From assembly GCF_003334765.1 (NCBI RefSeq), contig NZ_QOWT01000077.1: a DNA stretch of 1,647 bases; one strand, written 5' to 3'. The stretch comes from Escherichia coli (GTDB lineage: Bacteria > Pseudomonadota > Gammaproteobacteria > Enterobacterales > Enterobacteriaceae). The translations under genes and the position numbers were made by a program. A model generated the notes under the pieces. It saw only the letters and a program-made list of their open reading frames with translations, did not search any database and was not told where the DNA came from. This document shows, piece after piece, positions 853-1,343 of this stretch (its first letter is position 1; each line of letters begins with the position of its first letter).

Positions 853-858
853 AGAGGG
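853..858 (+). promoter_or_regulatory. Shine-Dalgarno sequence for the rep CDS
   Basis: AGAGGG lies 8 nt upstream of the ATG at 867. Confidence 0.6.
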
Positions 859-866
859 AAAAAATC

Positions 867-1343
867 ATGTTTATTGATTCAGAAAAACGACTGAAACAAC
901 TTTCAGATGAGGCAAAGAAAAACACCGAGGATCTCGAAGAAGCAAAGAAAAATTCAAGGTTTACACAGGTATCCCCAAAAGGTTGGGAACGTGTTCGAGA
1001 GCTGCTGAAGGATAGCCAAGGCATATCAGCACTGAAGCTGTACTCATTTTTAGCGGAGCATATCGATCCTACGTGTGGCGCTGTCGTTGCGGATCAGCAA
1101 TTCCTAGCTGAAAAACTTGGAGTTAGCAGAAGCACAATTATTCGGTGGCTCAATTACTTAGAATCAAAAAATGCATTAGTTAGAATCCCCGTTGCTGGTA
1201 AGGTTTGTGCGTATGCCCTCGATCCACATGAAGTCTGGAAGGGATACAACACTACGAAAAACCATGCAGCGTTTGTCACTAAAACACTGGTCAACAAAGA
1301 CGGTGATATTCAGCGCCGAATCATGGCCATGTTTTCAAATTGA
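867..1343 (+). CDS. Putative plasmid replication initiation protein (small winged-helix/HTH Rep), 158 aa
   Basis: ATG at 867 with a Shine-Dalgarno AGAGGG at 853-858 (8-nt spacer) and TGA stop at 1341-1343. It is the only long ORF without Arg/Pro/Trp-rich low-complexity composition. The C-terminal half has an HTH-like segment (QQFLAEKLGVSRSTIIRWLNYLESKNALVRIP) typical of winged-helix DNA-binding domains of plasmid initiators. It lies just downstream of an AT-rich tract and palindromic repeats. No HUH or catalytic-Tyr motifs, so not a rolling-circle Rep. The Rep assignment rests on context and motif, not on a homology search. Confidence 0.8.
   Translation: MFIDSEKRLKQLSDEAKKNTEDLEEAKKNSRFTQVSPKGWERVRELLKDSQGISALKLYSFLAEHIDPTCGAVVADQQFLAEKLGVSRSTIIRWLNYLESKNALVRIPVAGKVCAYALDPHEVWKGYNTTKNHAAFVTKTLVNKDGDIQRRIMAMFSN

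Follow-up and report, generated by a model that had tools for sequence, protein, structure and literature searches.

Initiators of iteron-containing plasmids, such as RepA of pPS10, carry N-terminal dimerisation helices of the leucine-zipper-like or coiled-coil kind. The plasmid analysed here belongs with pKL1 of Escherichia coli KL4, whose PlasmidFinder replicon type is Col(MG828). pKL1 is a molecule of 1549 bp (PMC12839544), and its origin and Rep-binding sites lie upstream of rep and not within it, with a 16-bp perfect inverted repeat in the upstream region (PMC3832669). According to the title of Burian et al. 2003, cited in PMC3832669, RepA of pKL1 forms hexamers.

The window, by which we mean the whole 1,647-nt stretch of DNA that was analysed, is to judge from its sequence a complete circular plasmid of the pKL1 / Col(MG828) family. 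Its replication gene has long been known, and the protein sequence is present in hundreds of database records. Close to the start of this gene, two short and nearly identical A-rich stretches lie in frame with each other and encode the same charged peptide. From the anatomy of this repeat, from how its parts are conserved, and from the absence of both length variants and surplus nucleotide identity, we regard it as probably a resemblance at the peptide level within one charged, amphipathic helix, in which a conserved motif stands beside a drifting neighbour and the match is specific to the pKL1 lineage. The repeat would then be neither a DNA duplication nor a length-variable site.

A pKL1-type plasmid and its repA gene

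Positions 1–77 of the window recur exactly at 1571–1647, as expected of a complete 1570-bp circle that was read with overlap. A 1570-bp E. coli plasmid record matched the plasmid over 100% of its length at 98.8% identity, and 1549-bp plasmids were 98.4% identical to it. PLSDB held 335 records covering at least 80% of the window, and 2259 that matched some part of it; the pKL1-type relatives among them measured 1546–1573 bp and were typed as Col(MG828) (MOB-suite/PLSDB). Besides this overall identity, the likeness to pKL1 extends to a fully identical RepA and to an inverted repeat upstream of rep. A palindrome with 23-nt arms (734–756 and 757–779, 91% complementary) precedes repA in the window, and a perfect 12-nt inverted pair (757–768 and 770–781) lies within this near-perfect palindrome. 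The palindrome at 734–781 probably corresponds to the inverted repeat of the pKL1 origin region and would represent a putative Rep-binding or operator region. The only length difference from the aligned 1549-bp relative (L052) is a 21-bp tandem duplication at 538–579.

Other elements of the window were also recorded. Positions 577–643 shared 95–100% identity with many small mobilizable Col-type plasmids; this stretch seems to resemble the ColE1 bom/oriT region as present in pBR322 (GCCAGTATACACTCCGCTATCGCTACGTGACTGGGTCA...), and such a likeness would explain the 'mobilizable' typing. A 29-nt inverted repeat was found at 365–393 and 609–637 (93% complementary), of which 365–393 is an inverted copy of the right end of the 577–643 stretch. 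Three copies of a 12-nt motif (TGAAACAACGTT, TGAACCAACGTT and TGAAACAACTTT) occur at 748–759, 825–836 and 892–903, spaced 77 and 67 nt apart; the first falls within the palindrome and the third within codons 9–12 of repA, and this triplet may be due to chance.

The original prediction had labelled the open reading frame at 867–1343 (plus strand, 158 aa and a stop codon) as rep. The label is correct: the frame encodes RepA of the pKL1 / Col(MG828) family, which is 100% identical across hundreds of plasmids of about 1.55 kb. The coding sequence was assigned from the list of open reading frames, from protein identity and from the Pfam HTH_36 signature, and a Shine-Dalgarno-like AGAGGG at 853–858 (plus strand), seen by direct reading, stands 8 nt before the ATG. 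The product was identical over all 158 aa to RepA WP_000469298.1 in 329 plasmid records, where it is named 'helix-turn-helix domain-containing protein' or, in one record (H58), 'RepA plasmid replication protein'. Pfam placed the HTH_36 winged-helix signature at residues 54–101 and returned in addition a weak RepL match and generic HTH families only; a search of NCBIfam gave no family-level name for RepA. repA is the only long open reading frame with support and the single established gene of the plasmid.

RepA proteins identical or closely related (77–85%) to that of the window are present in H81 (NC_004833.1) and in P0007, P0029, P0042 and P0068. Non-enterobacterial labels on such records include Corynebacterium renale, Corynebacterium evansiae, a Bacteroidales MAG, Acinetobacter and Pseudomonas. 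Either the host range is very broad, or these odd-host records go back to a small enterobacterial plasmid that is ubiquitous and reached them by contamination and mis-binning.

The repeat itself is as it was first described. GAGGCAAAGAAAAA (909–922) and GAAGCAAAGAAAAA (939–952) match at 13 of 14 positions and are spaced 30 nt, or 10 codons, apart and in frame, giving D14-EAKKN19 and E24-EAKKN29 in RepA. When the pair is extended to GATGAGGCAAAGAAAAA (906–922) and GAAGAAGCAAAGAAAAA (936–952), 15 of 17 positions match, and an exact 11-nt core, GCAAAGAAAAA, is present in both copies. Read as whole codons on the plus strand, copy 1 (906–923) is GAT GAG GCA AAG AAA AAC, encoding D14 E15 A16 K17 K18 N19 in the variable part of the N-terminal helix, and copy 2 (936–953) is GAA GAA GCA AAG AAA AAT, encoding E24 E25 A26 K27 K28 N29 where the helix ends on its C-terminal side and a conserved motif begins. 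Similarity at the 30-nt offset is limited to the 17 nt, the other 13 nt of the unit being unrelated to their counterpart.

We assessed how often a repeat of this quality arises by shuffling. Matches of at least 15/17 appeared in 0.85% of whole-ORF codon shuffles at any offset, in 0.05%–0.1% of such shuffles at offsets of 60 nt or less, and in 0.10%–0.16% when the charged N-terminal codons only were shuffled. Residue shuffles gave a hexapeptide repeat of at least 5/6 in 0.4% of cases when local and in 2.9% when made over the whole protein. Three unrelated relatives (P0090, P0133 and P0150) contain a comparable hexapeptide self-match of 5/6. The repeat is rarer than naive chance for this one sequence (P about 0.001–0.004), on figures uncorrected for the number of windows and positions that a first reading takes in. 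This speaks against an explanation by pure drift, given that even local shuffles of the charged segment reach the match in just 0.1%–0.4% of trials. Pure drift is uncomfortable for this one sequence, and an echo of the repeat in the wider family hints at some non-random cause.

Conservation and length variation among RepA relatives

Several hundred relatives of RepA were gathered in two ways: 5.8 billion proteins were searched through a word index, and HMMER was run in full against 1.84 billion representatives. For residue counts, 101 distinct relatives were lined up at the invariant G39-W40-x-R42. The motif EEA[KR]KN-xx-F-T-Q-V..GW.R runs through the whole family and includes copy 2, whose six positions held E in 58 relatives, E in 62, A in 57, K in 57 (R in 31), K in 71 and N in 94. 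From its last residue copy 2 runs into a linker motif, N29-x-x-F32-T-Q34-V-x-x-x-G39-W40-x-R42 (951–992, plus strand), which joins the helix to the winged-helix domain; G39, W40 and R42 were invariant in alignment A1, and N29, F32 and Q34 were at least 90% conserved. The copy-1 position, in contrast, was variable, being occupied by DEARKA, QDAQKE, RDVEKE, ENVRKA, ELEKLN and similar peptides. Comparing the two positions within each of the 101 relatives gave no match per six residues in 15, one in 30, two in 45, three in 6, four in 2 and five in 3; in other words, 90 of the 101 showed 0–2/6, and all three relatives at 5/6 were pKL1 itself.

Length variation in the repeat segment, which the original prediction had suggested looking for among Rep homologues, was absent between the copies. 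N-terminal length before G39 was 38, 39 or 42 residues, owing to an indel of 1 or 4 residues near residues 3–7, and the distance from copy 1 to copy 2 was constant across relatives and never differed by 10. The homologues are thus essentially without the repeat and without length variation in it, the result that the original prediction had named as its refutation, with the caveat of a weak 10-residue echo in their consensus.

That echo could be read as the trace of an ancient internal duplication, in which a 10-residue EEA(K/R)K helical unit was doubled early in the RepA family, after which copy 2 was constrained, copy 1 decayed and pKL1 retained or regained the best match. When the pKL1 cluster is left out and sequences above 60% identity are dropped, the family consensus (TEEQAERRLKELAEEARKEAKEHEEARKNSNF) has EEARK at both positions (..EEARKE....EEARKN..). 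Under the same filters, within-sequence identity at the 10-residue offset was about 1.2/6 and ranked first and second of 225 window/offset combinations (mean 0.65, sd 0.17), and several relatives (P0006, P0007 and P0018) reached 3–4/6 at this offset. However, the signal is weak at 1.2/6 and comes mainly from K18/K28 and A16/A26; it covers 5 residues and not the whole 10-residue unit, and once sequences more than 45% identical are removed, the 10-residue offset only ties with the 7-residue offset. It is also absent from distant relatives and from the 159-aa subgroup (ELEKLN / SDPKNN), and helices rich in E, A and K give such patterns without duplication. We therefore consider an ancient duplication unlikely, although the alignments would accommodate the family-wide echo either as an old decayed duplication or as a shared helix grammar. 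Decidedly unlikely is a further version, in which the N-terminal helix of the pKL1-family initiators would have been built by an ancient duplication of 10 residues, with the EEA(K/R)K patches as its remnants making equivalent contacts in the RepA hexamer. If this were true, the repeat would mark the oligomerisation interface of a structurally uncharacterised Rep family.

Partial relatives of RepA were also detected on larger plasmids. Of those listed as H87–H99, some cover residues 44–157 at about 73% identity on 70–105-kb E. coli plasmids, and others cover residues 97–157 at 80% on large Proteus and Vibrio plasmids. As these sequences come without the N-terminal helix, they suggest that the helix may be a separable module.

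We next consider the proposal that the repeat is slippage-prone and variable in length. In principle, RecA-independent deletion is possible between exact direct repeats of 11 nt that lie 30 nt apart, and slippage here would give RepA variants of 148 or 168 aa. For an exact 30-bp deletion or triplication we used 43-nt junction queries, for which the wild type cannot give megablast's 28-nt exact word; in a local control, megablast with its default filter found these queries only in synthetic variants. Earlier synthetic queries of 161 and 221 nt had been uninformative because wild-type plasmids match them in two pieces and tie with true variants. Neither deletion nor triplication junctions were found by megablast in PLSDB (334 pKL1-type records) or in complete E. 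coli genomes, and an IUPAC pattern covering all deletion crossover products gave 0 deletion junctions in JGI/ENA metagenomes. A metagenome pattern allowing a gap of 30–60 nt recovered 46 copies, every one with exactly 30 nt. Thus no variant 30 bp shorter or longer turned up in any collection searched, with a method validated on synthetic variants, and the 1- or 4-residue differences near residues 3–7 of the relatives are likewise never the 10 residues between copies that slippage would produce. A slippage-prone site is, on this evidence, extremely improbable. The plasmid needs RepA to replicate, so that defective products of slippage would disappear without being sequenced, and what the databases show is an absence of standing variation, not of the slippage event itself.

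A point in favour of slippage is that the same plasmid family does vary elsewhere, by a 21-bp unit present once or twice. At 538–579, in a non-coding region, the window has an exact 21-bp tandem duplication (GCGAGGCTTGCATAGGAGTAA twice). Where relatives have a single unit, its position 13 is G at 18 loci and T at 10; doubled units are GG in L051 (1570 bp) and L053 (1573 bp) and TT in the window, from which it follows that the duplication arose at least twice. The unit is a real slippage-type length polymorphism of pKL1-type plasmids, and its occurrence once or twice in these same plasmids means that the data are able to detect slippage-type variation.

A different duplication was seen in L001 (NZ_CP076691.1, 1640 bp), where 91 bp equivalent to window positions 1000–1090 are repeated in tandem inside repA. 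The 91 bp are not divisible by 3, and the record has no annotated repA; an artefact of assembly or circularisation, or else a defective copy, is the probable explanation.

The repeat at the nucleotide level

The residues that make up the repeat have few codons (E = GAR, A = GCN, K = AAR, N = AAY), so a repeated EAKKN automatically yields a near-identical A-rich DNA repeat. The copies share 15 of 18 bases, compared with 14.25 of 18 expected from both hexapeptides with random synonymous codons. Across all close pKL1-type relatives the repA repeat is the same except for a synonymous A/G polymorphism at base 950 (K28, AAA/AAG). AAG is the majority form, found in 32 of 47 copies that share their flanking sequence (46 in metagenome contigs and 1 in plasmid L001), and it is also present in the 1552-bp plasmid L050. 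This variant lowers the repeat to 14/17 (14/18 over the full hexapeptide codons). Because it is common, there is no selection for DNA identity between the copies, and there is no excess nucleotide identity to account for. The internal duplication envisaged in the original prediction is not supported by these comparisons: nucleotide identity is not above what the peptides require, only 17 of the 30 nt are similar, and the relatives are without copy 1.

A recent event at the DNA level, in which gene conversion or template switching copied GCAAAGAAAAAY between nearby quasi-repeats in the pKL1 lineage, was weighed against the same codons. pKL1 has GCA AAG AAA at both copies, whereas relatives differ at both: in DNA from seven of them the codons at copy 1 are unrelated and copy 2 reads GCR AAA AAG AAC, as against GCA AAG AAA AAT in pKL1, and five relatives with unrelated codons at copy 1 have GCR AAA AAG (or AAG AAG) at copy 2. 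To get from AGA AAA GCA in the nearest relative to AAG AAA AAC at copy 1, about 5 base changes in 9 nt are needed. Such a patch need not be invoked, however, for an identity of 15/18 that is not above the peptide expectation of 14.25, and agreement by chance at three synonymous positions, at roughly 1 in 12, is too frequent to be significant. RepA of the nearest outgroup is 82%–85% identical at the protein level with many synonymous differences throughout, so that the changes need not have been simultaneous, and the common AAG at base 950 shows that both sites evolve independently. We judge a templated origin to be very unlikely.

Could the repeat instead act as a nucleic-acid element? It might do so as paired GCAAAGAAAAA protein sites, as an antisense-RNA terminator with minus-strand TTTTTCTTTGC as its T-tract, or as mRNA structure controlling repA translation. 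A minus-strand terminator-like site (stem 937–925, then TGTTTTTCTT) does lie between the copies. The stem of this site consists of just 5 pairs, including one G-T; 6 sites of this kind turned up in the scan where 2.0 were expected, and neither strand gave a promoter-like site. The antisense terminator was rejected on these grounds. A family of GCAAAGAAAAA binding sites was rejected as well, there being no further copies of the 11-mer elsewhere in the plasmid at one mismatch or less. Folding energies of RNA around the repeat were no better than those of shuffles on either strand (z = +0.41 and +0.97), and an Rfam scan of the whole window with E up to 1 gave two weak chance matches, neither overlapping 906–952. 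The synonymous polymorphism in copy 2, the complete lack of nucleotide conservation in relatives and the upstream position of the pKL1 origin and Rep-binding sites (PMC3832669) likewise count against such an element, which we hold to be most improbable in any of its forms. Nothing indicates a DNA- or RNA-level function at the repeat.

An open reading frame of 33 aa overlaps repA at 907–1008 in the +1 frame, starting from an ATG within copy 1. Several database proteins (P0026, P0037, P0102 and P0117) begin at this ATG and then rejoin the RepA frame, and P0005 is out of frame from the first A-run to about residue 36. Such frame-shifted entries look like the result of single-base indels at homopolymer runs in metagenome assemblies and not like biology. 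A programmed frameshift at the A-runs was considered and rejected, as the entries fit assembly indels and the sequence has no in-frame X XXY YYZ slippery heptamer.

The N-terminal helix and comparison with other initiators

AlphaFold2, given a 57-sequence alignment, returned a model of RepA with a mean pLDDT of 73. Both copies of the repeat fall in a single predicted N-terminal alpha-helix at residues 5–28 (879–950, plus strand), modelled at moderate confidence (pLDDT block means 56–71) and followed by a loop (29–36), a helix (37–46) and the winged-helix domain (about 50–118). The charged N-terminal segment postulated earlier is, then, helical in the prediction. The helix is amphipathic, with a moment of 0.38–0.45 per residue and a stripe formed by L9, L12, A16, N19, L23 and A26. 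In the best heptad register (L9, L12, A16, N19, L23, A26 and S30; about 2.5–3 heptads), mean hydrophobicity is 0.41 only, A16 occupies an 'a' position, A26 and N19 occupy 'd' positions, and N29 lies beyond the helix end. Since a 10-residue spacing is not a multiple of 7 and A16 is 'a' where A26 is 'd', the two patches are not equivalent heptad units. As to the proposed helical dimerisation or coiled segment, the narrow hydrophobic stripe could serve oligomerisation, but the copies are not equivalent coiled-coil units. The helix may contribute to RepA self-association and the hexamer, or to contact with a partner.

Both patches offer Glu-Lys pairs 3–4 residues apart (E14/E15 to K17/K18, and E24/E25 to K27/K28). 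Glu followed by Lys three or four residues on is a common helix-stabilising pattern, and salt bridges would explain the EAKK arrangement. A sequence search of solved structures found none among RepA relatives, and Foldseek against the PDB gave generic winged-helix matches only (ArsR/SmtB, the CodY C-terminal domain and TubR) at E values of 1e-3 or weaker, with nothing informative on the N-terminal helix.

In the peptide-level explanation that we favour, two E-A-K-K-N patches ten residues apart (codons 14–29) would share one helix (residues 5–28) preceding the winged-helix DNA-binding domain. Copy 2 would be the old and constrained element, which ends the helix and runs into N29..F32-T-Q34-V..G39-W40-x-R42. 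Copy 1 would sit where the same helix evolves fast. Selection there appears to retain no more than charged residues that suit a helix, together with a small residue on the stripe, and in the pKL1 lineage this segment would have drifted to almost the same hexapeptide. A peptide repeated in a small codon alphabet would then leave an A-rich DNA repeat as a by-product. Understood in this way, the repeat is nothing out of the ordinary in a gene that was known before, and it matters very little. It does offer a pointer for a Rep family without a solved structure, in that residues 5–28 would form a separable charged helix and N29..F32-T-Q..GW.R a conserved joint to the DNA-binding domain. A separable helix, a conserved joint and partial relatives that start from residue 44 or 97 together mark the helix as the obvious place to begin with oligomerisation mutants.

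Compared with known systems, RepA of the window resembles the pPS10 RepA type in being a self-associating small-plasmid initiator with a predicted N-terminal helix before a winged-helix domain and with hydrophobic residues (L9, L12, A16, L23 and A26) at a spacing of 3–4. No sequence relationship to the iteron-plasmid initiators was detected, Pfam giving generic HTH families and a weak RepL match only. The pKL1-type stripe also departs from a leucine zipper, having three leucines over about 2.5 heptads and Ala and Asn in its core; the 10-residue spacing of the two patches is off the heptad, and pKL1 RepA is reported, in a title cited in PMC3832669, as a hexamer and not a zipper-type dimer. In composition (rich in E, K, R, A and Q) and in its Glu-to-Lys spacing of 3–4, the RepA helix resembles charged ER/K single alpha-helices and EAAAK-type designs. 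With about 24 residues it falls far short of typical ER/K helices in length and, unlike them, carries a hydrophobic stripe.
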